The position numbers and the translations under genes were made by a program. From NCBI RefSeq assembly GCF_044324875.1, contig NZ_CP172185.1: DNA of 64,000 nt, one strand, 5' to 3'. Each line of letters starts with the position of its first letter. Within the stretch, counting starts at the first letter, position 1. Positions 10,750 through 64,000 of the stretch are shown here, one piece after another. This DNA comes from Escherichia coli (lineage in GTDB: Bacteria; Pseudomonadota; Gammaproteobacteria; Enterobacterales; Enterobacteriaceae). The notes under the pieces were generated by a model, which was not told the origin of the DNA, made no database searches, and worked only from the letters and a program-made list of their open reading frames with translations.

Positions 10750-10758
10750 GGGGACATC

Positions 10759-26700: not shown

Positions 26701-26706
26701 TTGAAG

Positions 26707-33484: not shown

Positions 33485-34807
<1,323 letters not shown>

Positions 34808-35026
34808 TCTCACCACTTATGCCCGCACTCCCTTCCCCGAGTGCGGGTGTTTGCGCATAATTGACCCTTGTGCCTGAACTTACCACCTGGGTGAGTTCAG
34901 GTTTATTTCACTTCTTCCGTGACATTTTCATGTTCTTGCGGTCTAACACGAAGTGTTTTTAACGTCATTTAGACTGACCGACAACGGGCAGTTTTTTATT
35001 ACCAGGATAGTTGATCAGGGGTTCAC

Positions 35027-36523: not shown

Positions 36524-36618
36524 TGCCTGATGGTGATGAGTTAGCACAACCATCAGGTATTTATGGATGAGCTGGATAGAGGGGTAACACTCTATCCAGC
36601 CTTTTGCATATGCTGCTT

Positions 36619-37548: not shown

Positions 37549-37779
37549 AGTCGTGAACCTGATCTGTAAAAAATTAGCGTTAGTTTGCGCTGTGGTGGTT
37601 TGCTGGTCAACCATATTAAAACAGTGTTCCATTATTTTTTTGAGCCAGAACGTATTCCTGAAAGATTCCGTTGTGGAGTGGGGAAATTTACCCCGGCCAG
37701 GCGGTAAAGTTCTGCCCTTGCGCGCCGATAATCTTTGTCGAGTCCGGGCAGCATCACTTTTAAACACAGGACATCTTTG

Positions 37780-38547: not shown

Positions 38548-38616
38548 GCTGCCTCATTTTCCGACTGGCTGGACTATCTTTAGGACTGGCACAGGAAGAA
38601 TATGAGGAAGCGAACG

Positions 38617-40677
38617 ATGAGCAAGGCAGGCAAAATAACCGCTGCGATTTCAGGGGCTTTCTTGTTGTTGATTGTCGTGGCGATCATTTTGATTGCAACT
38701 TTTGACTGGAATCGACTCAAACCGACCATCAACCAGAAAGTCTCTGCGGAGTTGAATCGTCCGTTCGCTATCCGTGGCGATCTGGGCGTGGTGTGGGAGC
38801 GGCAAAAGCAAGAAACTGGCTGGCGCAGCTGGGTGCCGTGGCCTCATGTGCATGCAGAAGACATCATTCTCGGCAATCCACCGGATATTCCCGAAGTCAC
38901 AATGGTGCATTTGCCACGCGTAGAGGCAACGCTGGCACCGTTGGCGCTGCTGACCAAAACGGTCTGGCTACCGTGGATCAAACTGGAAAAGCCCGACGCA
39001 CGCCTGATTCGCCTCTCAGAAAAGAACAACAACTGGACATTTAATCTCGCCAGCGATGACAACAAAGACGCGAATGCAAAGCCGTCGGCATGGTCGTTTC
39101 GGCTGGATAATATTCTTTTCGATCAAGGGCGGATCGCCATTGATGACAAAGTAAGCAAAGCGGATCTGGAAATTTTTGTCGATCCGTTAGGCAAGCCGCT
39201 GCCGTTCAGCGAAGTTACTGGATCGAAAGGTAAAGCGGATAAAGAAAAGGTGGGTGATTACGTTTTTGGCCTGAAGGCGCATGGACGTTATAACGGTGAA
39301 CCGCTCACTGGTACGGGAAAAATAGGCGGTATGCTGGCGCTGCGTGGCGAAGGTACACCATTTCCGGTACAGGCTGATTTTCGCTCTGGTAACACCCGTG
39401 TTGCTTTTGATGGCGTTGTGAATGACCCAATGAAGATGGGTGGTGTCGATTTACGGCTTAAATTTTCTGGCGATTCACTGGGTGATCTCTATGAACTGAC
39501 GGGCGTTCTGCTGCCCGATACCCCGCCGTTTGAAACGGATGGTCGGCTGGTAGCGAAAATCGACACTGAAAAATCGTCGGTCTTTGATTATCGCGGTTTT
39601 AATGGGCGCATTGGCGATAGCGATATCCACGGTTCTCTGGTCTATACCACCGGCAAGCCACGGCCAAAACTGGAAGGTGATGTCGAGTCGCGGCAATTGC
39701 GGCTGGGGGACTTGGGACCGTTGATTGGCGTTGATTCCGGGAAAGGAGCTGAAAAGTCGAAACGGTCTGAACAGAAGAAGGGTGAAAAAAGCGTTCAGCC
39801 TGCGGGCAAAGTGCTGCCTTATGACCGCTTCGAAACCGATAAATGGGACGTCATGGATGCCGATGTTCGCTTCAAAGGGCGGCGCATTGAGCATGGCAGT
39901 AGCCTGCCGATTAGCGATCTTTCTACTCATATCATCCTCAAAAATGCTGACCTGCGCCTGCAACCGCTGAAATTTGGCATGGCGGGCGGCAGCATTGCGG
40001 CGAATATTCATCTGGAAGGTGATAAAAAACCGATGCAAGGGCGGGCAGATATTCAGGCTCGTCGGCTGAAACTGAAAGAACTGATGCCCGATGTAGAACT
40101 GATGCAGAAGACGCTGGGGGAAATGAACGGTGACGCGGAACTACGCGGTAGCGGTAACTCGGTGGCGGCGCTTTTAGGCAACAGTAACGGCAACCTGAAA
40201 CTGTTGATGAATGACGGGCTGGTGAGCCGCAACCTGATGGAGATTGTCGGGCTGAATGTCGGTAACTACATTGTCGGTGCGATATTTGGTGACGATGAGG
40301 TGCGGGTGAACTGCGCGGCGGCGAATCTTGATATTGCCAACGGCGTGGCGCGCCCGCAGATCTTTGCTTTCGATACTGAGAATGCGTTGATCAATGTTAC
40401 CGGCACGGCAAGTTTTGCTTCGGAGCAACTGGATTTGACTATTGATCCGGAGAGTAAAGGGATTCGGATTATCACGCTGCGTTCGCCGCTGTATGTGCGT
40501 GGGACATTTAAAAATCCGCAGGCTGGGGTGAAAGCCGGGCCGTTGATTGCCCGAGGAGCCGTTGCGGCGGCACTGGCAACGCTGGTTACGCCAGCGGCGG
40601 CGTTACTGGCGCTGATCTCACCTTCCGAAGGGGAGGCTAATCAGTGCCGGACGATTTTGTCGCAGATGAAGAAGTGA
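38617..40677 (+). CDS. yhjG: AsmA-family protein YhjG
   Basis: N-terminal TM anchor then large periplasmic AsmA-like domain; start taken at MSKAGKI... Confidence 0.85.
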   Translation: MSKAGKITAAISGAFLLLIVVAIILIATFDWNRLKPTINQKVSAELNRPFAIRGDLGVVWERQKQETGWRSWVPWPHVHAEDIILGNPPDIPEVTMVHLPRVEATLAPLALLTKTVWLPWIKLEKPDARLIRLSEKNNNWTFNLASDDNKDANAKPSAWSFRLDNILFDQGRIAIDDKVSKADLEIFVDPLGKPLPFSEVTGSKGKADKEKVGDYVFGLKAHGRYNGEPLTGTGKIGGMLALRGEGTPFPVQADFRSGNTRVAFDGVVNDPMKMGGVDLRLKFSGDSLGDLYELTGVLLPDTPPFETDGRLVAKIDTEKSSVFDYRGFNGRIGDSDIHGSLVYTTGKPRPKLEGDVESRQLRLGDLGPLIGVDSGKGAEKSKRSEQKKGEKSVQPAGKVLPYDRFETDKWDVMDADVRFKGRRIEHGSSLPISDLSTHIILKNADLRLQPLKFGMAGGSIAANIHLEGDKKPMQGRADIQARRLKLKELMPDVELMQKTLGEMNGDAELRGSGNSVAALLGNSNGNLKLLMNDGLVSRNLMEIVGLNVGNYIVGAIFGDDEVRVNCAAANLDIANGVARPQIFAFDTENALINVTGTASFASEQLDLTIDPESKGIRIITLRSPLYVRGTFKNPQAGVKAGPLIARGAVAAALATLVTPAAALLALISPSEGEANQCRTILSQMKK

Positions 40678-40749
40678 TGATAATTGCCGGATGTCTGACA
40701 TCCGGCAATTAAACAGATTTAGAGTGTTGGCAAAGTGTGCTTTGTTCAT

Positions 40750-40785
40750 GCCGGATGCGGCGTGAACGCCTTATCCGTCCTACAA
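40750..40785. repeat. REP element
   Basis: GCCGGATGCGGCGTGAACGCCTTATCCGTCCTAC, canonical REP-type palindromic unit, downstream of the yhjG terminator hairpin ATTGCCGGATGTCTGACATCCGGCAAT. Confidence 0.6.
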
Positions 40786-40858
40786 ATCTTTGCGAATTCA
40801 ATATATTGTATGGAAATTCAGGCCTGATAAGCGTAGCGCATCAGGCTTTTCACTCTTA

Positions 40859-42181
40859 TTACAACGATTGATGTCGCGTCTCATGGGTCAGCAGCAGGGC
40901 GATTAACGTCAAGCCAGCCATCGCCGCCAGATATAACCCCACCGCACCTAACCCGTAGTTAGTCTGCAACCAGGCTGCGATATACGGCGCAACGGAAGCC
41001 CCGAGAATCGACGCTACGTTGTAAGAGAACGATGCTCCGGTGTAACGCACTTCTGTCGGGAACAGCTCTGGTAACAGCGCGCCCATCGGCCCGAAGGTCA
41101 GTCCCATCAGACTTAATCCCAGCAGCAGGAAGGCAAAAACCAGAATCGGGTTGCCAGAACCGAGTAGCGGGTTAAAGGCGAACAGCGCGAACAGGATGAT
41201 CAGCGTGGTGATGATTACCATGCTTTTACGGCGACCAAAGGCATCAGCCAGTAATCCGGCGACTGGTACCATCACGCCAAAACCAATCACTGCCATCATC
41301 AGCATCCACAACACTTCGTTACGCGGCAGGCCAAGCCCAACTGGCGCGGCGGCGGTACTAAAGGTCATAGAGTAGACCGTCATGATGTAAAACAGCGTAT
41401 AGGTTGCCAGCATGATGAAGGTACCGAGCACCGTGACGCGTACGTGTTTGGTCAGCAGCGTACCCAGCGGGATCTTCACCTGCTTTTTCGCTTTAGCGAC
41501 TTTCTCAAACACCGGCGACTCATGCAGCGACACGCGAACATACAGGCCGATAATGACCAGCACCGCCGAGAAGATAAACGGCACACGCCAGCCCCAGCTC
41601 ATAAACTGCTCGTCGGTCAGTAGCCAGGAAAGCAGCAAGAAAGTGCCGTTGGCAAAGAAGAAGCCAATCGGTGCGCCCAGCTGCGGGAAGGAGCCATACA
41701 GTGCACGTTTGCGCGGTGGGGCGTTTTCAGTCGCCAGCAGCGCCGCGCCGCCCCATTCACCGCCTAAGCCCAGACCCTGACCAAATCGAGCCAGCGCCAG
41801 CAGCAGCGGGGCGAAAATACCAATCGTGGCATAGCCCGGCAGCAGACCAATCACCACGGTCGAAATCCCCATCGTTAGCAACGAGGCGACCAGCGTCGCT
41901 TTACGCCCAACGCGATCGCCAAAATGACCAAAAACGGCAGAGCCAATGGGGCGCGCGACGAAGGCGATGGCGAAGGTGGCGAGCGACTGGAGCGTTGCTG
42001 CCGTAGGATCGCCCTGCGGGAAGAAGATATGCGGAAACACAATAACGGCCGCAGTGGCGTAAATGTAAAAGTCGAAGAACTCAATGGCCGTGCCAATGAG
42101 AGAGGCGACAAGGACTTTATTACGCGAGTTGATCGGCGTGTATTCTTGCTCGTGGTCGAGTGTTGTGGCTGTTGCTTGCAT
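40859..42181 (-). CDS. yhjE: MFS metabolite:H+ symporter YhjE
   Basis: 440-aa multi-TM ORF. Confidence 0.9.
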   Translation of the reverse strand: MQATATTLDHEQEYTPINSRNKVLVASLIGTAIEFFDFYIYATAAVIVFPHIFFPQGDPTAATLQSLATFAIAFVARPIGSAVFGHFGDRVGRKATLVASLLTMGISTVVIGLLPGYATIGIFAPLLLALARFGQGLGLGGEWGGAALLATENAPPRKRALYGSFPQLGAPIGFFFANGTFLLLSWLLTDEQFMSWGWRVPFIFSAVLVIIGLYVRVSLHESPVFEKVAKAKKQVKIPLGTLLTKHVRVTVLGTFIMLATYTLFYIMTVYSMTFSTAAAPVGLGLPRNEVLWMLMMAVIGFGVMVPVAGLLADAFGRRKSMVIITTLIILFALFAFNPLLGSGNPILVFAFLLLGLSLMGLTFGPMGALLPELFPTEVRYTGASFSYNVASILGASVAPYIAAWLQTNYGLGAVGLYLAAMAGLTLIALLLTHETRHQSL

Positions 42182-47761: not shown

Positions 47762-49159
47762 ATGAAAATGGTCTCACGTATTACCGCGATCGGCCTGGCT
47801 GGCGTCGCGATTTGCTATTTAGGGTTATCTGGTTATGTGTGGTACCACGATAATAAACGCAGTAAACAGGCCGATGTTCAGGCATCTGCTGTCAGTGAAA
47901 ATAATCAGGTTTTAGGCTTTCTCCGCGAAAAAGGATGCGACTATTGCCACACGCCTTCGGCAGAATTACCCGCCTATTATTATATTCCTGGCGCGAAACA
48001 GTTGATGGATTACGACATTAAGCTTGGATATAAATCTTTTAACCTCGAGGCCGTGCGTGCGGCTCTGCTGGCTGATAAACCCGTTTCGCAAAGCGATCTG
48101 AATAAGATTGAATGGGTGATGCAGTATGAAACCATGCCACCAACGCGTTATACCGCGCTACACTGGGCGGGTAAGGTGAGTGATGAAGAGCGGGCGGAAA
48201 TACTCGCCTGGATTGCAAAACAGCGCGCGGAATATTACGCCAGCAATGACATTGCTCCGGAGCATCGCAATGAACCGGTGCAGCCCATCCCGCAAAAACT
48301 GCCTACCGATGCGCAAAAAGTGGCGTTGGGCTTTGCGCTGTATCACGATCCCCGTTTATCGGCGGATAGCACCATTTCATGCGCTCATTGCCATGCGTTG
48401 AATGCGGGGGGCGTCGATGGCAGAAAAACATCGATTGGTGTTGGTGGCGCAGTGGGGCCGATTAACGCGCCGACGGTATTTAACTCAGTATTTAACGTTG
48501 AGCAGTTCTGGGATGGTCGTGCGGCAACATTGCAGGATCAGGCTGGTGGACCGCCGTTGAATCCGATTGAAATGGCGTCGAAATCCTGGGACGAAATTAT
48601 TGCTAAGCTGGAAAAAGATCCGCAGCTTAAAGCGCAGTTCCTTGAAGTCTATCCGCAAGGTTTCAGTGGCGAAAATATTACTGATGCCATTGCTGAATTT
48701 GAGAAAACATTAATTACGCCGGATTCCCCATTTGATAAATGGTTGCGTGGAGATGAGAATGCGCTGACGGCACAACAGAAAAAAGGCTATCAATTATTCA
48801 AAGATAATAAATGTGCAACTTGTCATGGTGGTATTATTCTCGGCGGACGTTCCTTCGAACCGTTGGGGCTGAAAAAAGACTTTAACTTTGGTGAAATTAC
48901 GGCGGCGGATATTGGTCGTATGAATGTTACTAAAGAAGAGCGCGATAAATTGCGTCAGAAAGTACCCGGTTTACGTAACGTTGCACTAACGGCACCGTAC
49001 TTCCATCGCGGTGATGTGCCGACGCTGGACGGGGCGGTGAAACTGATGTTGCGCTATCAGGTAGGCAAAGAGCTGCCGCAGGAGGATGTGGATGATATCG
49101 TAGCTTTCCTGCACAGTCTGAACGGGGTTTACACGCCGTATATGCAGGATAAACAATAA
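47762..49159 (+). CDS. ccp: cytochrome c peroxidase Ccp (YhjA)
   Basis: 465-aa ORF with CxxCH haem-binding motifs (CDYCH, CAHCH, CATCH). Confidence 0.9.
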   Translation: MKMVSRITAIGLAGVAICYLGLSGYVWYHDNKRSKQADVQASAVSENNQVLGFLREKGCDYCHTPSAELPAYYYIPGAKQLMDYDIKLGYKSFNLEAVRAALLADKPVSQSDLNKIEWVMQYETMPPTRYTALHWAGKVSDEERAEILAWIAKQRAEYYASNDIAPEHRNEPVQPIPQKLPTDAQKVALGFALYHDPRLSADSTISCAHCHALNAGGVDGRKTSIGVGGAVGPINAPTVFNSVFNVEQFWDGRAATLQDQAGGPPLNPIEMASKSWDEIIAKLEKDPQLKAQFLEVYPQGFSGENITDAIAEFEKTLITPDSPFDKWLRGDENALTAQQKKGYQLFKDNKCATCHGGIILGGRSFEPLGLKKDFNFGEITAADIGRMNVTKEERDKLRQKVPGLRNVALTAPYFHRGDVPTLDGAVKLMLRYQVGKELPQEDVDDIVAFLHSLNGVYTPYMQDKQ

Positions 49160-49270
49160 TTAATTTAATCGCCCGAACAGGAATGTTCGGGTGATTTTTA
49201 TTGCGATAATAAAGTCTGTTTTTAATATTATCATGTTAAATGTTTATATTATAAAAAGTCGTTTTTCTGC

Positions 49271-49290
49271 TTAGGATTTTGTTATTTAAA
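49271..49290 (+). promoter_or_regulatory. GAD box (GadX/GadW/GadE binding site) upstream of gadA
   Basis: TTAGGATTTTGTTATTTAAA about 80 bp upstream of the gadA ATG. Confidence 0.6.
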
Positions 49291-49369
49291 TTAAGCCCGT
49301 AATGCCTTGCTTCCATTGCGGATAAATCCTACTTTTTTATTGCCTTCAAATAAATTTAAGGAGTTCGAA

Positions 49370-50770
49370 ATGGACCAGAAGCTGTTAACGGATTTCCGCT
49401 CAGAACTACTCGATTCACGTTTTGGCGCAAAGGCCATTTCTACTATCGCGGAGTCAAAACGATTTCCGCTGCATGAAATGCGCGATGATGTCGCATTCCA
49501 GATTATCAATGATGAATTATATCTTGATGGCAACGCTCGTCAGAACCTGGCCACTTTTTGCCAGACCTGGGACGACGAAAACGTCCATAAATTGATGGAT
49601 TTGTCGATCAATAAAAACTGGATCGACAAAGAAGAATATCCGCAATCTGCAGCCATCGACCTGCGTTGCGTAAACATGGTTGCCGATCTGTGGCATGCGC
49701 CTGCGCCGAAAAATGGTCAGGCCGTTGGCACCAACACCATTGGTTCTTCCGAGGCCTGTATGCTCGGCGGGATGGCGATGAAATGGCGTTGGCGCAAGCG
49801 TATGGAAGCCGCAGGTAAGCCGACCAACAAACCAAACCTGGTGTGCGGTCCGGTACAAATCTGCTGGCATAAATTTGCCCGCTACTGGGATGTGGAGCTG
49901 CGTGAGATCCCTATGCGCCCCGGTCAGTTGTTTATGGACCCGAAACGCATGATTGAAGCCTGCGACGAAAACACCATCGGCGTGGTGCCGACTTTTGGCG
50001 TGACCTACACCGGTAACTATGAGTTCCCGCAGCCGCTGCACGATGCGCTGGATAAATTCCAGGCCGACACCGGTATCGACATCGACATGCACATCGACGC
50101 TGCCAGCGGTGGCTTCCTGGCACCGTTCGTTGCCCCGGATATCGTCTGGGACTTCCGCCTGCCGCGTGTGAAATCGATCAGTGCTTCAGGCCATAAATTC
50201 GGTCTGGCTCCGCTGGGCTGCGGCTGGGTTATCTGGCGTGATGAAGAAGCGCTGCCGCAGGAACTGGTGTTCAACGTTGACTACCTCGGTGGTCAGATTG
50301 GGACTTTCGCCATCAACTTCTCCCGCCCGGCGGGTCAGGTAATTGCACAGTACTATGAATTCCTGCGCCTCGGTCGTGAAGGCTATACCAAAGTACAGAA
50401 CGCCTCTTACCAGGTTGCCGCTTATCTGGCGGATGAAATCGCCAAACTGGGGCCGTATGAGTTCATCTGTACCGGTCGCCCGGACGAAGGCATCCCGGCG
50501 GTTTGCTTCAAACTGAAAGAGGGTGAAGATCCGGGATACACCCTGTACGACCTCTCTGAACGTCTGCGTCTGCGCGGCTGGCAGGTTCCGGCCTTCACTC
50601 TCGGCGGTGAAGCCACCGACATCGTGGTGATGCGCATTATGTGTCGTCGCGGCTTCGAAATGGACTTTGCTGAACTGTTGCTGGAAGACTACAAAGCCTC
50701 CCTGAAATATCTCAGCGATCACCCGAAACTGCAGGGTATTGCCCAGCAGAACAGCTTTAAACACACCTGA
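49370..50770 (+). CDS. gadA: glutamate decarboxylase alpha GadA
   Basis: [28 protein letters not shown]...; 466 aa; adjacent to gadX. Confidence 0.95.
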
Positions 50771-50789
50771 TAACATAACGTTGTAAAAA

Positions 50790-50833
50790 CCGAATGCCCA
50801 ACCTTTAAAAAACAGTTGGGCATTCGGTTGCTT
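50790..50833 (+). terminator. Rho-independent terminator after gadA
   Basis: CCGAATGCCCAAC...GTTGGGCATTCGG hairpin followed by TTGCTT. Confidence 0.6.
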
Positions 50834-51129
50834 ATTAATCGCAATAATATATTGGCTGTCTATTCATCGTGTTGATAAGATATATGTTATATGAATGTTT
50901 ATTCAGTGTAACGGATATTTTTAATGTCACTACAAGGTATTATTTGCTTGCTATTAATTTCACTGCGTTCTTAAGCACGCCTTTTGTATTATAAATCCAG
51001 TCATCCTGCCCGTAGATTATCATCCTGTTTTCCCGCTTCGTTAAAATTTATTTATCAATCAATTTGACTTAAGAGGGCGGCGTGCTACATTAATAAACAG
51101 TAATATGTTTATGTAATATTAAGTCAACT

Positions 51130-51954
51130 ATGCAACCACTACATGGTAATTGTCTAATTGCGTACGCAAGACATAAATATATTCTCACCATGGTTAATGG
51201 TGAATATCGCTATTTTAATGGCGGTGATCTGGTTTTTGCGGATGCAAGCCAAATTCAAGTGGATAAGTGTGTTGAGAATTTCGTATTAGTTTCAAGAGAC
51301 ACGCTTTCATTATTTCTCCCGATGCTCAAGGAGGAGGCATTAAAACTTCATGCACATAAAAAAGTTCCTGCATTACTCGTTCATCACTGTACCAGAGATA
51401 TTCCTGTTTTTCAGGAAGTTGCGCAACTATCGCAGAATAAGAATCTTCGCTATGCAGAAATGCTACGTAAAAGGGCATTAATCTTTGCGTTGTTATCTGT
51501 TTTTCTTGAGGATACGCAGTTTATACCGTTACTTCTGAACGTGTTGCAACCGAATATGCGAACACGAGTTTGTACGGTCATCAATAATAATATCGCCCAT
51601 GAGTGGACATTAGCCCGAATCGCTAGCGAATTGTTGATGAGTCCAAGCCTGTTAAAGAAAAAATTGCGCGAAGAAGGTACGTCATATTCACAGTTGCTTA
51701 CTGAGTGTAGAATGCAGCGTGCTTTACAACTTATTGTTATATATGGTGTTTCAATTAAGCGAGTTGCAGTATCCTGTGGATATCACAGCGTGTCGTATTT
51801 CATTTACGTTTTTCGAAATTATTATGGGATGACGCCCACAGAGTATCAGGAGCGATCGGCGCAGGAATTACCGAACTGTGGCTCGGCGGCAAGTATGGCT
51901 GCGCAAGGGAATTTTTACGGCACTGACCGTTCTACGGAAGGAATAAGATTATAG
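51130..51954 (+). CDS. gadX: AraC-family acid resistance regulator GadX
   Basis: 274-aa ORF, MQPLHGNCLIAYARHKYILTMVNGEYRYF... Confidence 0.95.
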   Translation: MQPLHGNCLIAYARHKYILTMVNGEYRYFNGGDLVFADASQIQVDKCVENFVLVSRDTLSLFLPMLKEEALKLHAHKKVPALLVHHCTRDIPVFQEVAQLSQNKNLRYAEMLRKRALIFALLSVFLEDTQFIPLLLNVLQPNMRTRVCTVINNNIAHEWTLARIASELLMSPSLLKKKLREEGTSYSQLLTECRMQRALQLIVIYGVSIKRVAVSCGYHSVSYFIYVFRNYYGMTPTEYQERSAQELPNCGSAASMAAQGNFYGTDRSTEGIRL

Positions 51955-51970
51955 AGTTTTACTCAGACAT

Positions 51971-52076
51971 AAAAAAAACCCGGCATAGGGGACCGGGAAG
52001 AGGATAGTCTGCCGTCTCCAGACTAATAAACCGTTATAACACTCCCTGTTGGCACGGGAAACTTTGTGCTCTCAGT
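51971..52076 (-). ncRNA. gadY: GadY small RNA (antisense to the gadX 3' UTR)
   Basis: Minus-strand ACTGAGAGCACAAAGTTTCCCGTGCCAACAGGGAGTG...GGTCCCCTATGCCGGGTTTTTTTT matches remembered GadY, with terminator hairpin and U-run. Confidence 0.75.
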
Positions 52077-52322
52077 AAGTTAAATATAACTTTTACTGGA
52101 AATAAGATCAGCCATTTTTTTATAAACATAAGCTATACGCTGTGCGAAAATATATTCGTGCTGCATTTACTTATTATCAATTAACTGTTATGCAAAACTA
52201 CTTTGTGGATAAATTTTGGTCCTACCAAATCTGGCAGTTTTTGCGCTAAGAAACAGTCTGGCATCATTTCATTAGTATACTGAAATTGAAATAATCGCAG
52301 TAATGAAATATAAGGGATAGTC

Positions 52323-53051
52323 ATGACTCATGTCTGCTCGGTGATCCTCGTTCGTCGTTCATTCGATATTTATCATGAACAGCAAAAAATATCGTTGCAC
52401 AACGAGAGTATCCTGTTACTGGATAAAAATTTGGCAGACGATTTTACGTTTTGTTCACCGGATACGCGACGACTGGATATCGATGAGCTGACAGTTTGCC
52501 ATTACTTACAAAATATTCGTCAGATACCACGCAATTTAGGGTTACATAGCAAAGACCGTCTGTTAATTAACCAGTCACCCCCCATGCCGCTGGTGACGGC
52601 GATTTTTGATAGTTTCAATGACTCCGGGGTAAATTCGCCGATACTGAGCAAAATGCTCTATCTTTCCTGTTTATCGATGTTTTCTCATAAGAAAGAACTG
52701 ATCCCCTTACTTTTCAATAGTATCAGTACTGTTTCAGGAAAAGTTGAACGCCTTATTAGCTTTGATATCGCCAAACGTTGGTATCTGCGCGATATTGCGG
52801 AAAGAATGTATACCAGCGAGAGTCTAATCAAAAAAAAGTTGCAGGATGAAAATACCTGTTTCAGTAAAATATTACTCGCCTCCAGGATGTCGATGGCCAG
52901 ACGATTACTCGAGTTACGTCAAATTCCTCTGCATACTATTGCGGAAAAATGTGGCTATAGCAGTACATCGTACTTTATAAACACATTTCGACAATATTAT
53001 GGTGTAACGCCACATCAGTTTGCGCAACATTCGCCAGGTACCTTTTCCTGA
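52323..53051 (+). CDS. gadW: AraC-family acid resistance regulator GadW
   Basis: 242-aa ORF with C-terminal AraC helix-turn-helix. Confidence 0.9.
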   Translation: MTHVCSVILVRRSFDIYHEQQKISLHNESILLLDKNLADDFTFCSPDTRRLDIDELTVCHYLQNIRQIPRNLGLHSKDRLLINQSPPMPLVTAIFDSFNDSGVNSPILSKMLYLSCLSMFSHKKELIPLLFNSISTVSGKVERLISFDIAKRWYLRDIAERMYTSESLIKKKLQDENTCFSKILLASRMSMARRLLELRQIPLHTIAEKCGYSSTSYFINTFRQYYGVTPHQFAQHSPGTFS

Positions 53052-53413
53052 CATATTTTGCATTTGAATATTGGTCAGGATCTCACACCTGCTTCATGTG
53101 AAACTCTTCCCTGATGATTTCTGCCGGGCTACCGGCTAGTTCTCTTTCGCAGTTTGCCAGGCGGTATAGGTATTTTCAGGAGGAAAAGACTCGGCATGTT
53201 TGGGATTATTAAGCTGACAATTCATACGATTACGGGAATGTGGGTCAGTATTGTGTTGTTTAAATTGATGACGAATGGCTGGAGTGGTTTCTACTTTCAG
53301 TGCTGTGTACTAAGCCTGGTATTCCTGACGGTTAGCTGGTTGTTGAGTGGTGAATGGTTAGCAGGAAAGAGTAAGGCTGAACCCTCACGTTCAACCTTAC
53401 TCTCATTTACACG

Positions 53414-56400
53414 TTACGCTTTTTTAAAGCGGGCAAAGAGATGTTCCACTACAACGAAAAAGACCGGAACGAAGTAAATTGCCAGCACTGTTGCGGCAAA
53501 CATCCCGCCCATCACGCCGGTACCTACCGCGTTTTGCGCGCCAGAACCGGCACCATGACTGATAACCAGCGGCAGCACGCCGAGAATAAAGGCCAGAGAG
53601 GTCATCAGGATTGGGCGTAAACGCATTCGCGCCGCTTCGATGATCGCCTCTATCGGCGTTTTCCCTTCTTTCTGCATCATCTCAACGGCAAATTCGACAA
53701 TCAGGATGGCGTTTTTGGCGGAAAGCCCGATGGTGGTCAGCAAACCAACCTGGAAGTAGACGTCATTACTTAAGCCGCGTAGATCGGTGGCCAGTAATGC
53801 GCCAACGACGCCTAACGGTACAACCAACATCACCGAGAACGGAATTGACCAGCTCTCATAAAGTGCGGCGAGGGCGAGGAACACCACGACCAGTGAAATG
53901 GCATACAGCGCGGGAGCCTGGTTTGAGGATAACGCTTCCTGATACGACAGTCCGGTCCATGAGTAGCCGACGCCTGCCGGAAGTTTAGCGACCAGGTCTG
54001 CCATAAATTTCATGGCGTCACCGGTACTTTTCCCGGCCGCCGCTTCACCTAAAATCTCCATTGACGGGATGCCGTTGTAGCGTTCCAGTCGCGGTGAACC
54101 ATAGGTCCATTCGGTAGACGAATAGGCAGAAAGCGGTGCCATCGTGCCAGAGGCGTTGCGTACATACCACTGGTTGATGTTATCCGGCAACATACGGAAC
54201 GGCGTGCCTGCCTGGACATACACTTTTTTCACCCGCCCCTGGTTGAGGAAGTCGTTCACGTAGCTGCTGCCGAAGGCGGTGGAAATTGTCTGGTTGATAT
54301 CAGACAGCGCCACACCCATTGCCTCGGCTTTCGCGGCGTTGACGTTCACTTTGAACATCGGTGTATCTTCCAGGCCGTTCGGGCGTACCCCGGTGACTTG
54401 ATTCGGTGATTGCGCTGCCAGTGATAATAGCTCGTTTCGCGCCTGGGTCAGTTTTTCGTGTCCCAGGTTGCCGTTGTCCAGCAGTTCCATATCAAAACCT
54501 GACGCGGTACCCAGTTCAGCCACCGCGGGTAAGTTGAACGGGAAGACGACGGCTTTATTGATACTGCTTAACGCAATCATTGCCCGCTGAATGATCGCGG
54601 TAACCGAGTTTTCCTCACCGACACGTTCAGACCACGGTTTGAGGCTGATAAACGCCAGACCGTTGTTTTGCCCCTGGCCGCTGAAGCCAAAGCCGCCAAC
54701 GGTAAACACCGACTGAACATTATCTTTCTCTTTAGTCAGATAATAATCCGTCACCTGTTGCAGCACTTTCGTGGTGTTAACCATGGTGGCACCGGAAGGT
54801 AACTGCGCGGTGGTCATAAATACCCCCTGATCCTCTTCTGGTAAGAAAGAGGTCGGCGTGCGCAGGAACAGCACCGCCATCCCGGCGCAAATCAGCAGGT
54901 AGACCACCATGTAGCGACCGGTACAACGCAACAGCGAGCGGGTGCTGTCGGTATAGTGCTGAGTTGATTTTTCAAACAGTGTGTTGAAGCGTGCGAACAG
55001 GGCGTTAGGTTTGTGACCACCTTCCGGCGCGGCTTTCAGAATGGTGGCGCACAGGGCAGGGGTCAGGCTCATTGCCACAAATACTGAAAGCAGCATGGAG
55101 GAGATCAGCGTGATGGAGAACTGGCGGTAGATCTCCCCGGTTGCACCGCTCATAAAGGCCATCGGCATAAACACTGCGGAAAGAACAACGGCAATCCCGA
55201 CCAGCGCACGTTGGATCTGCCCCATCGATTTATGCGTCGCTTCCTTCGGCGGTAGCTTATCTTCTGCAATGACACGCTCGACGTTCTCCACCACCACGAT
55301 GGCGTCATCCACCAGTAACCCTATCGCCAGCACCATCCCGAACATAGTTAACGTGTTGATGGTGAAACCGACCGCCGACAAGATCGCAAACGTCCCGAGA
55401 ATAACCACCGGTACGGCAATCGTCGGGATGATTGTGGCACGGAAATTCTGCAAAAACAGATACATGACCAGGAAGACGAGGATGATAGCCTCAACCAGTG
55501 TTTTAAAAACTTCCTGAATAGAAATTTCGATAAACGGCGTGGTGTCGTAAGGATAAACCGTCTTCAGACTTGCGGGGAAATAGGCTGATAAGCGGTTCAG
55601 CTCCTCTTTGACTGCCCGTGAGGTATCCAGGGCGTTTGCTCCGGTAGCCAGTTTGATGGCGATCCCGGCAGCAGGTTTGCCGTTATAGCGCGCCACGGTG
55701 GAATAATCTTCCGCTCCAAGTTCGACGCGGGCGACATCACGCAGCAGCACTTGCGAACCATCTTGCTGAACTTTCAACAGGATTTTGCCAAATTCTTCCG
55801 GCGTTTGCAGACGCGTCTGCACAATGATCGAGGCGTTTAGTTGCTGGTCTGCCGCCTGTGGCATGCCACCCAGTTGACCACCGGAAATCTGGTTGTTTTG
55901 CACCTTAATCTGGGAAATAACATCGGAAGGTACCAGATTGTATTTATTGAGTTTTTGCGGGTCCAGCCAGATACGCATGGCGTACTCGGAACCAAAGAGC
56001 TGTACGCTACCAACGCCCGCGGTACGGCTTAGCGGGTCTTTGATATTAGACGCTACATAGTCCGCGATATCGTACTGGTTGAGGCTGCCGTTATCAGAAA
56101 TAAACGCCGCTACCATCAGGATATTACTGCTCGACTTATCGACGCTAATCCCCTGCTGCTGCACCGCTTCAGGTAATGAAGGCATAGCGAGTTGCAGTTT
56201 ATTTTGCACCTGAACCTGTGCGATATCAGGCGATGTCCCAGTCTCGAAGGTCAGAGTAATAGAGGCATTACCCGCCGCATCACTGGTTGAAGACATGTAC
56301 ATCAGGCCATCAAGCCCATTCATATTTTGCTCAATCACCTGAGTGACCGAGTCTTCTACCGTTTGCGCATCGGCACCTGGATAGGTAGCGCTGATGGTAA

Positions 56401-56527
56401 TGGTCGGTGGCGCAATCTGCGGATACTGCGCAACCGGTAAGTTCATGATTGCCAGACCGCCTGCAAGCATCATAATAATGGCAAGTACCCAGGCAAAAAC
56501 CGGGCGATCAATAAAATAGTTAGCCAT
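53414..56527 (-). CDS. mdtF: RND multidrug efflux pump MdtF
   Basis: 1037-aa AcrB-like ORF. Confidence 0.95.
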
Positions 56528-56551
56528 GAAAGTCCCCTTAAGCCTGCAACG

Positions 56552-57709
56552 TTATTGTTTCGATTCGGTGCTGGCGTTTTCCTGGCTGGAGGAAATTGCT
56601 CGTGCTTTGATACCCGGACGAATGCGTTGCAAACCGGAAACGATCACCCGATCGCCAGCCTGTAAGCCAGAGGTGACGACCCACTGGTCGCCGATGGCTT
56701 TGCTGGCTTCAATTTCACGTAGCTGCACGACATCGTCTTTATCCAGAATGAGCGCCGTTGCTTTACCCTGGGCGTTGTGGGTGACGCCTTCCTGCGGCAC
56801 CAGTAATACATTCTGGCGGCTACCTTCATCCACTAATGCCGTGACATACATGCCAGGCAGCAAGTCACCATTTGGGTTGGGGAAAATCGCCCGTAACGTC
56901 ACGGAGCCCGTGGTTTCATCCACCGTCGGGTCGGAGAATTTCAGCGTGCCGGTCTGGCTGTAACGTTTACCATTTTCCAGATTGAGCTGTACTGGCGTAC
57001 TGCCCTGAACCTGTTTGATTTGCCCACTGGCGACCTCTTCTTTCATACGCAAGAAATCCTGCACCGACTGCGTGAGATCGACATAAATCGGGTCCAGACG
57101 TTGTACGGTAACCAGCGAATCTGCCTGATTAGCGGTAACGAGTGCGCCGACGGTCACCGACGATTTCCCGCTGACGCCCGTAATCGGCGAGGTGACATTT
57201 GCGTATTGCAGGTTGATAGTCGCCTGTTCAACAGCCGCTTTGGCGACGGTGACATTGGCTTCTGCTTCATTCAACTGGGTGCGCGCGGTGTCGTAATCCT
57301 GACGGCTAACGTAGTTGGTCTTCAGCAACGATGCCTGGCGGTTAAAGGTGATGCGGGCATTGCTGGCGGTAGAGAGCGCTTTCGCCAGCGTGCCTTTGGC
57401 GGAGTTCAGCTCGGCCTGTAAAGGTGCAGGGTCAATCTGGTAAAGCGAATCGCCCTGGTTCACTTTATCGCCTTCGATAAAGTTGCGTTTAATGATAATA
57501 CCGCCCACCTGGGGACGTATCTCGGCAACTTCATAAGGAACGGTTCTACCGGGCAATTCGCTCAACACATTGACCGAACCGGGGGAGAGTGTGACGACAC
57601 CGACCTCAGGCGTCATGGCTGCGGCGTTTTCCGCCGATTTGTCATCGCAGGCGGTGAGCATCGCGCCGCAGAATAACAACGGTATTAACAGCTTTCTTCT
57701 TCTGTTCAT
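56552..57709 (-). CDS. mdtE: RND efflux membrane fusion protein MdtE
   Basis: 385-aa lipoprotein-type membrane fusion protein ORF upstream of mdtF. Confidence 0.95.
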   Translation of the reverse strand: MNRRRKLLIPLLFCGAMLTACDDKSAENAAAMTPEVGVVTLSPGSVNVLSELPGRTVPYEVAEIRPQVGGIIIKRNFIEGDKVNQGDSLYQIDPAPLQAELNSAKGTLAKALSTASNARITFNRQASLLKTNYVSRQDYDTARTQLNEAEANVTVAKAAVEQATINLQYANVTSPITGVSGKSSVTVGALVTANQADSLVTVQRLDPIYVDLTQSVQDFLRMKEEVASGQIKQVQGSTPVQLNLENGKRYSQTGTLKFSDPTVDETTGSVTLRAIFPNPNGDLLPGMYVTALVDEGSRQNVLLVPQEGVTHNAQGKATALILDKDDVVQLREIEASKAIGDQWVVTSGLQAGDRVIVSGLQRIRPGIKARAISSSQENASTESKQ

Positions 57710-58047
57710 TTTAGTCCCTGAAAATTCTTGAGAAATAACGGTTCTTTAAATTGCGCGCGAGGAGAGATATGAGGGATTTACAGACCAGCGGCATAGTGGG
57801 GTTGTCAGCCAGTAAGGTGGGATACAGGCATAGTGATCGACATGGTGAGGTCAACGACAAAAAAAATGTTGCCGTTCTGCCAACAGTTCCTGCCAGCATT
57901 CGGGCAACGAAGGGTTCTACTGGTGGATACATATACCAGGGGAATAAAGTCGTTTTCGCCTCTCCTTTAGTAATCACCGGGGGTAATGAAATCAGCATCT
58001 GCATCCCTCGTCATGCCAGCCATCAATTTCAGTTGCTTATGTCCTGA

Positions 58048-58575
58048 CTAAAAATAAGATGTGATACCCAGGGTGACGATGTCGCTCATACGTCTTAGTT
58101 TCAGCTTGTACATAATGTTGAATTTCTGAATCTTTAATGTTTGTTGCGAAATATTGAGCGTCGACGTGATATTGCTTTCATTTTTATTTTTCAGAATCAG
58201 TTGCATAATTTTGAACTGATTATGTGAAAAACATAATTGTGAATTCTTATGGGGCAAGTGTTTACCATAAGTAATCTCAAGAAGATTTTTGATACTTTCT
58301 TTGCGGCTAACAAAATAAATAGGCGCTTTAGCTTTTAGTTTACTGATGTGATAAGGTGCCAAAACAATAATTCTCTCGGCATCTAATTTCTCCAGAAATT
58401 TAATCGCTTCTTCATCAAGGATATGATTGTGATAGGTATCAATGATAACCTTGAAGGGTTTATTGCCTACTTTTTTGATCTCTGACAGGGAATTGATTTT
58501 TATCATTTCGTGATTATCTTTCAACTGCCAAAAGCCCTGTAAAAGAAAAGAATCTTTCGTCATGAGAAAAATCAT
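58048..58575 (-). CDS. gadE: LuxR-family acid resistance activator GadE
   Basis: MIFLMTKDSFLLQGFWQLKDNHEM...; 175 aa from an internal Met of the track ORF. Confidence 0.9.
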   Translation of the reverse strand: MIFLMTKDSFLLQGFWQLKDNHEMIKINSLSEIKKVGNKPFKVIIDTYHNHILDEEAIKFLEKLDAERIIVLAPYHISKLKAKAPIYFVSRKESIKNLLEITYGKHLPHKNSQLCFSHNQFKIMQLILKNKNESNITSTLNISQQTLKIQKFNIMYKLKLRRMSDIVTLGITSYF

Positions 58576-59373
58576 AACTTGCTCCTTAGCCGTTATCGTT
58601 TCGAACATGTCATCCTTTTCATTATTTACATCCTTGTCCGAATCGTTGTTCAATATAGTAAACGCCTATAAGAACTTTGCCCTTCGTGAACTAATACGTC
58701 TATTAACACTAATCAATACTTCAGATTTATCCATCACGCACTCCATATATTGATCCTAAGTAAGATTCCTGGTTGTTATCAATTTGTAAATGGTAAACAA
58801 AAAGTTAACGTTTGCGGATTACTGCCCAAGAATAAGTTATCAATAACCAGTTTGTGATCTCTGAAGAATATTACTAAAGTTAAAATGTAATCCGATTTAA
58901 ATATCGAGTCTCCTTGTTTCGACTTAAGCTGGCAATTGGATTGCCAGCTTTCTTTTAACGCATTGAAATTACCTGAGTAAATAACGCATTCATGTCTTCA
59001 GGTTTTTATATAGCGTCTGGAGACACGGATATTTATGCAATGTAATCAACGCCTGTTGCAAAAAAATGAACCCGGATTACTTATTTAACCGCCCATAGCA
59101 TCAACGCTTACGGAACTCTTTGTTCACTTTCCCACAGCACTTTTAAAACATTAAACCTGACTACGGAAAATATCAGCCATGATAATGTTTGAAATGGCTA
59201 ATTTGCCATGGAATGAAAAAAATTAGATGAAATTCAGTAGGTTGAAATAATCATCAGCAGGTAATTATTTCAATGATAGTGCGCAATTGATCTACAACGC
59301 TGTGTAGCGGAGAGAGTATTAATCGGATCATAGTCACATCAAGTGACTATGATCCGGGTGACAACAGGAATAA

Positions 59374-59946
59374 TTATTGCTGCTTAACGAACAAACTGGC
59401 GAAGCTGAACAGGCTGGCGGCGCTAAATATCAGTTCAATACCCACCAGTGTGGAAACCAAAGTTACAGACACCATCGGCGTTGCACCAAGGAATATCCAT
59501 GCAATGACGATATCCAGCACACCAATAACGAGCTGTAGCCAGCTGCCTTTCATTGAACGCTGACGATACCAACTCATCAGGCGAATAACCCCTGCAACAC
59601 AGAACAAACCGGCAATAAATGCCGCAATGGCAAAAATGCCCAGCTCCGGTGCGCGGATGAAGAAATAGCCGATCAATAAATAGGCGACTGCGACGAGGAA
59701 ACCGGATAATACCGGCCAGAAATTATGACTGCGGTTGCTGAATAATCCAACAATAAGCGCAACGCCCGAGCAGATTAATAATGCACCCACTACCGTGCTT
59801 AAAATATCGCCAGAGACGAACGGGAAACTGATACACAGCAACCCGACGATAAACAGTAGCACGGCAATAAACTGGATTGCTCTGCGATGCTTTTTCAGCA
59901 TCTCCAGATCAAACTTCAAAATTGTTGCCTTATCTATATATAACAT
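59374..59946 (-). CDS. hdeD: acid-resistance membrane protein HdeD
   Basis: 190-aa multi-TM ORF divergent from hdeA. Confidence 0.9.
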   Translation of the reverse strand: MLYIDKATILKFDLEMLKKHRRAIQFIAVLLFIVGLLCISFPFVSGDILSTVVGALLICSGVALIVGLFSNRSHNFWPVLSGFLVAVAYLLIGYFFIRAPELGIFAIAAFIAGLFCVAGVIRLMSWYRQRSMKGSWLQLVIGVLDIVIAWIFLGATPMVSVTLVSTLVGIELIFSAASLFSFASLFVKQQ

Positions 59947-60200
59947 AGAACCACCCTATAAAATTAAGAAGAAAATCCCCTGCTATCAATCTATGCCAAA
60001 AACGCGTCTAAGAATGCAGTCGATTTAATAAAAATTTCCTAATTACAGTATCTGATGCATCTGTAACTCATTGTATTGAAATAAAAATATCTGATTTTGA
60101 TATTTTCCATCAACATGACATATACAGAAAACCAGGTTATAACCTCAGTGTCGAAATTGATTCGTGACGGCTCTTTCACTTTATAGTTGAGGATATTACG

Positions 60201-60533
60201 ATGAAAAAAGTATTAGGCGTTATTCTTGGTGGTCTGCTTCTTCTGCCAGTTGTGAGCAATGCAGCGGATGCGCAAAAAGCAGCTGATAACAAAAAACCGG
60301 TCAACTCCTGGACCTGTGAAGATTTCCTGGCTGTGGACGAATCCTTCCAGCCAACTGCAGTTGGTTTTGCTGAAGCGCTGAACAACAAAGATAAACCAGA
60401 AGATGCGGTTTTAGATGTTCAGGGTATTGCAACCGTAACCCCAGCTATCGTTCAGGCTTGTACTCAGGATAAACAAGCCAACTTTAAAGATAAAGTTAAA
60501 GGCGAATGGGACAAAATTAAGAAAGATATGTAA
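60201..60533 (+). CDS. hdeA: periplasmic acid-stress chaperone HdeA
   Basis: 110-aa ORF with signal peptide, MKKVLGVILGGLLLLPVVSNAADAQKAADNKKPVNSWTCEDF... Confidence 0.95.
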   Translation: MKKVLGVILGGLLLLPVVSNAADAQKAADNKKPVNSWTCEDFLAVDESFQPTAVGFAEALNNKDKPEDAVLDVQGIATVTPAIVQACTQDKQANFKDKVKGEWDKIKKDM

Positions 60534-60648
60534 TTCCGGGAATGCGTTACATCGTACTTCCTTGCATATTGAACAGGCCGGAATATCTTCTTTAAAAGCA
60601 GCTATTCCTCCTGTTTGTATATAATCTCTATATTGAATGGGTTACAAA

Positions 60649-60975
60649 ATGAACATTTCATCTCTCCGTAAAGCGTTTATTTTTATGGGCGCTGTAGCGG
60701 CTTTGTCACTGGTGAACGCACAATCTGCGCTGGCAGCCAATGAATCCGCTAAAGATATGACCTGCCAGGAATTTATTGATCTGAATCCAAAAGCAATGAC
60801 ACCGGTTGCATGGTGGATGCTGCATGAAGAGACAGTATATAAAGGTGGCGATACCGTTACTTTAAATGAAACCGATCTCACTCAAATTCCTAAAGTGATC
60901 GAATACTGCAAGAAAAACCCGCAGAAAAATTTGTATACCTTCAAAAATCAAGCATCTAATGACTTGCCGAATTAA
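60649..60975 (+). CDS. hdeB: periplasmic acid-stress chaperone HdeB
   Basis: MNISSLRKAFIFMGAVAALSLVNAQSALA... signal peptide. Confidence 0.9.
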   Translation: MNISSLRKAFIFMGAVAALSLVNAQSALAANESAKDMTCQEFIDLNPKAMTPVAWWMLHEETVYKGGDTVTLNETDLTQIPKVIEYCKKNPQKNLYTFKNQASNDLPN

Positions 60976-61038
60976 TGAGGTACAAGTAAAAAGGAGTAGC
61001 AAGTTGAGCCATCTTGCTGCTCCTTTTTGCTTTTTTAT

Positions 61039-61686
61039 ATGACAGCAGAATTTATTATACGTCTTATACTCGCAGCAATTGCCTGTGGCGCTATTGGCAT
61101 GGAAAGGCAAATGCGCGGCAAAGGAGCAGGGTTACGCACACATGTATTAATTGGCATGGGAAGCGCCCTGTTTATGATTGTTTCGAAATATGGTTTTGCT
61201 GACGTGCTGTCTTTAAATCACGTCGGACTGGACCCCAGCCGTATTGCAGCTCAGGTGGTGACGGGCGTCGGGTTTATCGGCGCAGGTAACATTCTCGTTC
61301 GTAACCAAAATATTGTAGGTCTGACGACAGCAGCGGATATCTGGGTGACCGCCGCCATTGGTATGGTTATTGGTAGCGGTATGTACGAACTGGGCATTTA
61401 TGGTTCAGTGATGACCTTGCTGGTGCTGGAAGTCTTCCATCAATTAACCTTCCGCCTGATGAACAAAAATTACCATTTACAGCTGACATTAGTGAACGGT
61501 AATACGGTATCAATGCTCGACTGGTTTAAGCAGCAAAAAATAAAAACGGATTTAGTTTCGTTGCAGGAAAGTGAAGATCATGAAGTGGTCGCCATTGATA
61601 TCCAGCTTCATGCCACAACGTCGATAGAAGATCTGTTGCGATTATTAAAAGGTATGGCAGGGGTGAAAGGCGTTTCAATTAGCTAA
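61039..61686 (+). CDS. yhiD: MgtC-family inner membrane protein YhiD
   Basis: MTAEFIIRLILAAIACGAIGMERQ... MgtC/SapB signature. Confidence 0.9.
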   Translation: MTAEFIIRLILAAIACGAIGMERQMRGKGAGLRTHVLIGMGSALFMIVSKYGFADVLSLNHVGLDPSRIAAQVVTGVGFIGAGNILVRNQNIVGLTTAADIWVTAAIGMVIGSGMYELGIYGSVMTLLVLEVFHQLTFRLMNKNYHLQLTLVNGNTVSMLDWFKQQKIKTDLVSLQESEDHEVVAIDIQLHATTSIEDLLRLLKGMAGVKGVSIS

Positions 61687-61706
61687 TCTTTATAGTTATT
61701 TATTCA

Positions 61707-61732
61707 CAGGAGTACCAGAGCGGTACTCCTGT
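61707..61732. terminator. bidirectional hairpin between convergent yhiD and chuV
   Basis: CAGGAGTACC-AGAGC-GGTACTCCTG palindrome. Confidence 0.6.
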
Positions 61733-61737
61733 TGGTT

Positions 61738-62508
61738 TTAATGATCGAGGACGATCAGTGGTGAATGGTTGGCAGGATCTTTAAGTACGGTAATATCCGC
61801 GCCGTAGAGCATTGTCAGCGCCTGCTGTGTCAATACGTCCTGCGGTTTACCATTTGCGATAACCTTTCCTTTTTGCATTAATACAATACGGTCTGCATAA
61901 CGCGCGGCAAGATTTAGATCGTGCAATACGCAGCAAACATTGAACTGCCGTTCGTGAACTAACTGGCGTAATAAACGGAACAAGTGCTGCTGATGGTGAA
62001 TATCCAGCGCCGAAGTTGGTTCATCAAGAAATAACCATTTCGGTGAGGGAGTAGGTTCCCAGAGTTGCACCAGCAGGCGCGCTAATTGTACGCGCTGTTG
62101 TTCACCACCGGATAATTGCCGATAGTCGCGGTTTGCTAACGCCTGACAGTCACATAACGCCATTATTTGTGCTGTTTCATTATCCTGATTACCAGTACGA
62201 TGCGGATGCCGACCCATCTGGATAACTTCTTGTACGCTGAATGGAAACGCCATGTGGCTATTTTGACGCATCACGGCCCGGTGTTTCGCCAGTTCAGTAA
62301 TCGACCATTCATTTAATGGCTTATTAAACAACCGACATTCGCCGCTATCAGGTTGAAGATAGCCGGTTAACTGGCGAAGCAGCGTAGATTTTCCCGCACC
62401 ATTAGGGCCGAGAATGGCAACAATTTCCCCACCGGGAAAAGTCAGCGAGACATTGTCAGTCAGACGCCGCCCCTGAAGGCTATAAACCAGATTCTGGGCG
62501 CTGATCAT
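61738..62508 (-). CDS. chuV: haemin ABC transporter ATP-binding protein ChuV/HmuV
   Basis: Walker [10 protein letters not shown], signature [13 protein letters not shown]; start taken at MISAQNL..., overlapping the chuU stop. Confidence 0.85.
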
Positions 62509-63497
62509 GTGATCCTCCGGTTGCGCAGAATCAACCACATAAAATAAGGACCGCCAAGCAGGCTGGTTAATAATCCCACGGGCATTTCTGCTGGCTGTAC
62601 CAGCGTGCGGGCAAGCGTGTCTGCCATCAGCAATAAACAGGCTCCGGCGAGGGCGGAGCAAGGGATTAGCCAGCGGTGATTTGCCCCGGTAGTCATACGA
62701 ATCAGATGCGGGATCACCAGGCCAATAAAGCCGATAATGCCGCTTACCGATACGGCGGCACCAACGAGCAGTGAGCTCACTAACAGTAATTGCTGGCGTT
62801 TACGCTTAACGTTCACGCCGAGGTAGTGGGCTTCTTCATCACCGAGCTGCAGTAAATTCAGCGTTCCGGCGAGACAAGTTGTTGCGATAATGGCCGGTAG
62901 GATGAATGAACTGGCAACCAATAACGTCGGCCATTGCGCCTGTCCAAGATTGCCCATCATCCACAATGTGAGTTGTCGTAGCTGCTGCTCATCGCCGATA
63001 TAGCTCAGGATGCCGATCGCTGCGCCGCACAGGGCATTGATGGCGATACCGGCGAGTAATAATTGCATCATGCTGCCATCGCGATGGCGCTGCGTGATGA
63101 GAAAAATGATGGTGCAGACCACTAAACTTCCGGCAATGGCAAACACCATTTGCTCATAGAGCACCAGCACCACTGGGAAGGAGAAGGGCAGCACAATAGC
63201 AACGCCAACCATTAATGCAGAACCGCTACTGACGCCGAGTAATCCAGGGTCAGCCATTGGGTTGCGAAAAAGCCCCTGCATAATTACCCCTGCGGTTGCC
63301 AACGCTGCACCTACCAGCACCGCCAGCAAAACCCGTGGTAGACGAATATTGAGCCAGATATCGCGGTATTCCTCATCAAAAAGGGCATCAAAACTGATCT
63401 TTAACGCTCCCTGACTGGCACCGAACAGCACCAGAGCGAGCAATAATAGTGATAGCCCCATAAAGACCCTGGCGGAAGAGAGTGAATCCTTGAGCAC
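62505..63497 (-). CDS. chuU: haemin ABC transporter permease ChuU/HmuU (FecCD family)
   Basis: 330-aa multi-TM FecCD-type permease ORF. Confidence 0.85.
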
Positions 63498-63545
63498 GCA
63501 AAACTCCGTTACGACATTACGGCGCGGAGATTCCGCGTCGGGGGA

Positions 63546-64000
63546 TCACGCCGGTTTCAGGTCCGGTTCAATCAGACTGTAGACCTGCTGGTTAAGTGCT
63601 GGCGCATTTGCCAGTTCATGGATATGTGCGGCGACATCGGCACGGTTAACAAAACCATGACACTCCTGATTTTGTATCCGTTGTGCTTTGCCCGTTGCCG
63701 CCCCATCAAGCAGACCGCCAGGGCGGAGAATGGCGTAATCAAGCTGGCTGGTTTGCAACCAGCTTTCCGCCAGCGTTTTTTCCCGTACCGCCTGACCAAA
63801 CGCAGCCTTTGCCCGCTCCGATAAAAACGGCCAGCTATCGCCGCATCCCAAAGAGGTCACCAGAATCATGCGACTAATGCCGGCCTTTTCGGCCTCATCA
63901 ATCACTGTTCTGTGCGCCAGATAATCCTGAGCTCCGCCCATTGTTGAGATGATAAGCGCATCCGGGCCAGCTGCGCGGCAAGCATCCGCGACTACGCTGG
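63546..64000 (-). CDS. chuY: ChuY-like NAD(P)H-dependent reductase, C-terminal part (gene runs off window end)
   Basis: Open frame to the window edge; Rossmann-like ...ILVTSLGCGDSWPF...; position upstream of chuU-chuV. Confidence 0.55.
   Translation of the reverse strand, partial: SVVADACRAAGPDALIISTMGGAQDYLAHRTVIDEAEKAGISRMILVTSLGCGDSWPFLSERAKAAFGQAVREKTLAESWLQTSQLDYAILRPGGLLDGAATGKAQRIQNQECHGFVNRADVAAHIHELANAPALNQQVYSLIEPDLKPA

Follow-up and report, generated by a model that had tools for sequence, protein, structure and literature searches.

The window ends in the distal part of the chu haem-uptake cluster at its standard site inside the acid fitness island

The last 2.3 kb of the window, the 64,000-nucleotide stretch of DNA analysed here, very probably (probability about 0.93) represents the distal end of a chu (shu/hmu-type) cluster at its standard chromosomal site, between yhiD and dctR inside the acid fitness island. 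Three minus-strand reading frames, chuV, chuU and chuY, occupy this part and are all convergent with the plus-strand gene yhiD, and the left junction of the cluster falls within the window, at a distance of 51 bp from the yhiD stop codon. The arrangement is an ordinary one and is already known, descriptions of chu at this position in the island going back to 1998; the site of the shu locus was first described by Wyckoff et al. 1998, according to the citation of that work in PMC5799925. The location between yhiF (dctR) and yhiD has been reported as O-island 140 in O157:H7, EAEC 042 and ESC818 (PMC10540162), the acid fitness island measures ~22 kb where chu is present and ~13 kb where it is absent (PMC9144400), and the haem locus occupies a mid-island position, also in E. 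albertii (PMC5799925).

The identity of the genes was established by searches against NCBIfam, Pfam and PDB, in which the names and coordinates of chuV, chuU and the part of chuY, as originally predicted, were all upheld, as was their convergence with yhiD. chuV (hmuV/shuV; 61738..62508, minus strand) is intact and encodes a 256-aa ATPase of a haem ABC importer, which matched Pfam ABC_tran and gave 395.5 bits to the NCBIfam equivalog NF010068, 'heme ABC transporter ATP-binding protein' (cutoff 261); the same protein is found in strains MEW and MDR_56 (WP_000622315.1). chuU (shuU/hmuU; 62505..63497, minus strand) encodes the FecCD-type permease of the importer (330 aa), with a full-length match to Pfam FecCD (320 bits) and Yersinia HmuU (4G1U, E 1e-128) as its nearest solved structure, and the product is identical to WP_000910402.1 of MEW and MDR_56. 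BtuC/Fec models in NCBIfam scored ChuU under their cutoffs, and NCBIfam holds no ChuU-specific model. As read from the sequence, chuU starts with GTG behind a GGAG Shine-Dalgarno motif, a GGAG-type ribosome-binding site precedes each start, and the chuU stop and chuV start overlap as ATGA. The third frame is the C-terminal part of chuY, encoding anaerobilin reductase (63546..64000, minus strand; 150 of 207 codons plus stop), of which 63549..63998 on the minus strand aligns to residues 58-207 of ChuY in the structures 5GUY/5FFQ (E 2e-95). The alignment starts at residue 58, so chuY runs off the window end and ~57 N-terminal codons fall outside the window. The fragment matched Pfam NAD_binding_10 and no NCBIfam model, and its identity was settled through the Pfam and PDB searches. 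Folding of the chuY-chuU spacer (63498..63545) revealed no structure (z -0.45).

On the other side of the junction, yhiD (61039..61686, plus strand) encodes an MgtC/SapB-family inner-membrane protein and is the last gene of the hdeA-hdeB-yhiD unit; its product gave 396 bits to NCBIfam NF007431 (cutoff 214), in agreement with the RefSeq annotation of the colinear MEW sequence. Colinearity with MEW and its RefSeq annotation likewise place gadA, gadX, the GadY sRNA, gadW, mdtF, mdtE, gadE, hdeD, hdeA and hdeB at 49370..60975, and Rfam located GadY at 51966..52079 (150 bits), between gadX and gadW. An ES205 sRNA was also observed at 57859..57930 (105 bits), just downstream of gadE and thus at the position of K-12 gadF; GadY and ES205 are ordinary acid fitness island content. 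The Rfam scan of 48000..64000 returned only these two, with none within the coordinates of chuV-chuY and the hairpin described below.

The closest complete genome is that of strain MEW, with 99.9% identity over 60900..64000, and an O158:H23 strain is likewise 99.9% identical to the segment; the allele in the window is therefore nearest an uncommon set of genomes. ESC818 is among the 99.4% matches, and the nearest genomes were isolated from gull, wastewater, milk and healthy human carriers. Nucleotide identity of the segment is 97.7% to O157:H7 and 98.6% to UTI89, ChuV and ChuU differ from O157:H7 at 3 and 2 residues, respectively, and the differences from UTI89/O157:H7 range from 0 to 3 residues. 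MEW is colinear with the window over 48900..64000 at 99.77% identity without gaps (window position = MEW locus position + 48899, for MEW locus positions 1..15101), and its order of genes is yhiD, chuV, chuU, chuY, chuX, chuW and chuT, followed by divergent chuA-chuS, dctR and slp, with a chu block of 9,060 bp between yhiD and dctR. A check for the remaining chu genes downstream had been proposed earlier; chuX, chuW, chuT, chuA and chuS all follow in MEW. The same five genes would be expected past position 64000 in the source genome, judging by its closest relatives. It had further been claimed that chu directly abuts the island, which proved incorrect: the island genes dctR and slp lie past chu in MEW, so the cluster is embedded within the island and does not form its border. 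The right (dctR) junction was observed in MEW and in three outgroup loci (L004-L006) only.

A survey of 5426 complete E. coli genomes revealed chuVUY in 2237 (41%), with one chromosomal copy each and contiguous with yhiD in every chu-positive genome (2237/2237), while a K-12-type yhiD-dctR junction occurs in 3179 of the 5426. At this fixed position, the locus thus exists in essentially two forms. The idea that the window spans a core/accessory junction holds in that chu is variably present, but the junction is not specific to a strain, as it occupies a fixed site in all carriers. Comparison with K-12, in which dctR is found 41 bp after yhiD as originally stated for this site (dctR/slp), shows that homology ends 3-5 nt past the stop codon of yhiD and begins again precisely at that of dctR. 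The K-12 spacer contains a 38-bp K-12-type filler sequence, and folding of this yhiD-dctR spacer gave no terminator-like hairpin (z 0.06). A blastn-short search for the origin of the filler, with the window, the chu block and the outgroup loci as targets, yielded only chance-level matches of 8-14 nt. A local alignment to the inverted chuS-dctR spacer was discarded as evidence of its origin, since the score of 20 was reached by 183/300 shuffles against the whole island; the same score was reached by 41/5000 shuffles against the two island ends. A clean deletion of chu would leave no 38-bp filler, suggesting that the loss may have been a replacement or that the history is more complex.

To place the two states in order, an outgroup scan with ChuV as seed and one genome per species was used, which recovered E. 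albertii (L006) and two genomes labelled E. coli (L004 and L005). The latter are only 88.6% and 93.1% identical to the window, respectively, over the shared 12 kb and therefore represent divergent Escherichia lineages. All three loci have the order slp-dctR-chuS-chuA-chuT-W-X-Y-U-V, (yhiD)-hdeB-hdeA-hdeD-gadE, with chuX, chuW, chuT, chuA and chuS present in each, and the E. albertii locus lacks both yhiD and the yhiD/chuV hairpin. Because E. albertii and the two divergent lineages share the arrangement, it is most simply read by parsimony that chu was inside the island before E. coli arose and that the K-12-type state reflects a later loss toward phylogroups A, B1 and C. The xenoGI analysis, which puts the island and chu on one branch, accords with an ancestral chu (PMC5799925).

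That chu is instead a pathogenicity island gained recently by horizontal transfer appears highly improbable, even though it occurs in only 41% of complete genomes, was named an 'O-island' in O157:H7 (PMC10540162) and has a GC content of 50% against 43-46% for the island around it. As the chu block (50.3%) matches the window average (51%), it is the flanking island DNA (46.3% and 42.6%) that stands out in composition. Neither an integrase, a tRNA nor flanking direct repeats were found in the annotation and junction sequences of the 9,060-bp block and its junctions, which counts against a recent arrival. The single identical insertion point in all 2237 genomes, the same layout in E. albertii and two further lineages with only 89-93% identity to the window, and the continuation of the island through dctR and slp on the far side argue in the same direction, as do the sources of the nearest genomes (gull, wastewater, milk and healthy carriers), chu tracking phylogroup and not pathotype. 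Another reading, in which the empty site is ancestral, the 38-bp spacer was replaced by a single chu insertion and the empty allele either survived in A, B1 and C or re-entered them by recombination, would account for the 38-bp sequence, which is not part of the chu block and is unpredicted by a clean deletion, as well as for the GC difference between chu and the surrounding island. We nevertheless regard it as unlikely, since chu is in place in all three outgroup lineages recovered and xenoGI assigns the island and chu to a single branch (PMC5799925). No outgroup with the island and an empty site was recovered, a result to be read in the knowledge that a ChuV-seeded scan could not find such a genome. 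An ancestral chu with later loss is hence the history that we prefer.

Between the convergent stop codons of yhiD and chuV lies a hairpin (61706..61732, plus strand; ACAGGAGTACC-AGAGC-GGTACTCCTGT), which was identified by folding and a terminator scan and is read as the intrinsic terminator of yhiD. It consists of a perfect 11-bp stem with 6 GC pairs and a 5-nt loop, begins 19 nt past the yhiD stop, is separated from the chuV stop by 5 nt and sits within DNA that is chu-specific in comparison with K-12. The calculated dG values are -21.4 (plus strand) and -19.6 kcal/mol (minus strand), with z-scores of -4.2 and -5.0 and shuffles folding as well in 1/200 and 0/200 cases, respectively; the hairpin is stronger than expected by chance. 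On the plus strand the tail after the stem, TGGTTTTAAT, runs into the chuV stop codon. The yhiD-sense RNA past the stem, UGGUUUUAAU, has 6 U in 10, and this tail reaches the complement of the chuV stop, whereas the chuV-sense RNA past the stem, GAAUAAAUAA, has 2 U in 10. With GAATAAATAA as the tail on the minus strand, a U-tract was not found on both strands, and the consensus terminator scan called the hairpin on the plus strand only and not on the minus strand.

Judging from these features, the hairpin is most likely a polar element, the intrinsic terminator of the hdeAB-yhiD transcript, which would stop read-through; for chuV transcripts it could do no more than stabilise the 3' end as a stem or cause weak pausing. 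The original prediction was of a hairpin shared bidirectionally by the two genes. A single strong hairpin does lie between the two stops, with its start at 61706 and not at 61707, while its bidirectional character did not stand, as a U-tract follows on one side only. One terminator is often common to convergent gene pairs, and that this one truly terminates both the yhiD and chuV transcripts gains something from the single perfect palindromic 11-bp stem between convergent stops, from the strong fold on both strands and from a core that is invariant across lineages ~11% divergent overall. Given the U-tract on the yhiD-sense side only (6 U in 10 versus 2 U in 10 on the chuV-sense side) and a scan call confined to the plus strand, however, a bidirectional terminator is unsupported. 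chuV in several other genera ends with a canonical hairpin and T-run, the usual look of a chuV terminator, which again speaks against it, and we consider the bidirectional reading rather doubtful, though less so than either of the alternative histories above.

Conservation of the polar hairpin was assessed in eight Escherichia sequences (the window, MEW, UTI89, O157:H7, strain 48, MDR_56, L004 and L005), in which the 10-bp stem core CAGGAGTACC/GGTACTCCTG is unchanged (8/8) and one polymorphism each occurs in the loop, the outermost pair and the tail. The core being invariant among these eight sequences, no covariation support for the stem was obtained, and invariance set against the 7-11% divergence of L004 and L005 is only mildly notable. 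The hairpin is absent from K-12, in which yhiD is kept and chu lost, and from E. albertii, in which chuV is kept and yhiD absent. Two points have perhaps not been stated explicitly before, namely the polarity of the convergent hairpin, which as yhiD terminator has a U-tract that overlaps the chuV stop, and its disappearance in both K-12-type and E. albertii-type arrangements; both are details of local gene-end architecture and do not amount to a new system.

Another strong terminator-like hairpin with a long T-run was observed between hdeB and yhiD at 60987..61036 (AAAAGGAGTAGCAAG...CTTGCTGCTCCTTTTTGCTTTTTT), so that expression of yhiD from the hdeAB promoter would need read-through. In E. coli the hdeB and yhiD terminators (window 60985..61035 and 61706..61732) flank yhiD and have a common AGGAGTA...CTCCT core. 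In E. albertii (L006, 10766..10830) the chuV stop is located 4 nt from the hdeB terminator hairpin, whose AGGAGTA...CTCCT core is common with that of the yhiD/chuV hairpin. From the shared sequence, it is possible that the hdeB and yhiD terminators served as breakpoints for the gain or loss of yhiD. A more far-reaching proposal, to which we attach very little credence, is that the yhiD/chuV hairpin is a seam element present only where yhiD and chuV meet, that terminator hairpins were the breakpoints of both independent deletions and that in chu-positive strains the hairpin also couples or insulates convergent transcription under acid stress and iron starvation.

As regards function, ChuU (permease) and ChuV (ATPase) form an inner-membrane type II ABC importer, which receives its haem by way of ChuA, the receptor in the outer membrane, and ChuT, the binding protein of the periplasm. 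The ATGA overlap suggests that chuU and chuV are translationally coupled, and they are probably the final genes of a leftward chuT/W-X-Y-U-V transcription unit. [quoted passage not shown]

Phylogroups B2, D, E and F carry chuA, which A, B1 and C lack, in the Clermont scheme (PMC10145502), and the position of chu inside the island underlies this phylotyping marker. The earlier expectation that the strain is not K-12-like is borne out by its being chu-positive: the source genome comes from a lineage with chu and hence not from A, B1 or C (PMC10145502), and its acid fitness island is of the long form, ~22 kb. chu had also been called characteristic of pathogenic lineages, a description better reworded as characteristic of certain phylogroups, in view of the gull, wastewater, milk and human-carriage origins of the nearest genomes. 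Other than chu, no phylogroup markers were found in the window, and the paper on ESC818, a near neighbour, gives no phylogroup. The finding matters little beyond annotation.

Several further observations were made along the window. The bcs, dctA and pdeH region (17100..42000) has a best match of only 99.1% over 25 kb of core genes among the 5426 complete genomes, and identity to MEW lies between 97.7% and 99.8% depending on the segment; the source lineage has poor representation in the set of complete genomes and is a mosaic when set against its nearest neighbours. At 757..2189, yhjY is interrupted relative to MEW by an IS3-family insertion sequence of 1.43 kb, with orfA containing HTH domains (800..1330) and orfB an rve integrase core (1435..2157), and duplication of MEW positions 4551-4554 at both ends of the element suggests a target duplication of 3-4 bp. 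A copy of IS621, an IS110-family element with a 'bridge RNA' recombinase, is located at ~6050..7334 (transposase 6161..7141, minus strand), as evidenced by the match of its 326-aa protein to PDB 8WT6 'IS621 transposase' (726 bits, E 3e-218); it lies downstream of eptB in the proK / RtT repeat region, where it takes the place of ~340 bp of MEW sequence. At 15233..17073, a 483-bp unit is repeated 3.8 times in tandem (95% matches); it corresponds to the ldrD/rdlD long-direct-repeat toxin-antitoxin unit, of which MEW has a single copy at this locus. An 8.6-kb contig (NZ_JAUFQN010000010.1) of the 'Flavobacterium paronense' CECT 8460 assembly is 98% identical to chuU-chuV-yhiD-hdeB...mdtF of the window and almost certainly represents E. 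coli contamination of that assembly.

Among known systems, O-island 140 of O157:H7 EDL933/Sakai (chuS, chuA, chuT, chuW, chuX, chuY, chuU and chuV/hmuV) has the same genes, order, orientation and insertion point, and nothing structural differs, the window simply stopping inside chuY. The shu locus of Shigella dysenteriae is the equivalent of the chu locus (Wyckoff et al. 1998). The K-12 acid fitness island (slp to gadA) is colinear with window 49370..61686, and the portion compared, mdtE to yhiD (window 56941..61689), is 98.6% identical, but K-12 has a 41-bp yhiD-dctR spacer where the window has the hairpin and the 9-kb chu block. In operons of Citrobacter, Kluyvera, Raoultella and Enterobacter the order chuT-W-X-Y-U-V is kept at 74-90% protein identity, whereas these operons are not beside acid-resistance genes and most of their chuV genes have their own unrelated GC-rich hairpin, followed by a T-run in several (Citrobacter, Kluyvera). 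More distantly, HmuUV of Yersinia pestis (4G1U) is a type II ABC importer related to BtuCD, to which ChuU aligns over its whole length and whose haem ATPase equivalog in NCBIfam also covers ChuV; it is an orthologous system of another genus, in a genomic context unrelated to the acid fitness island.
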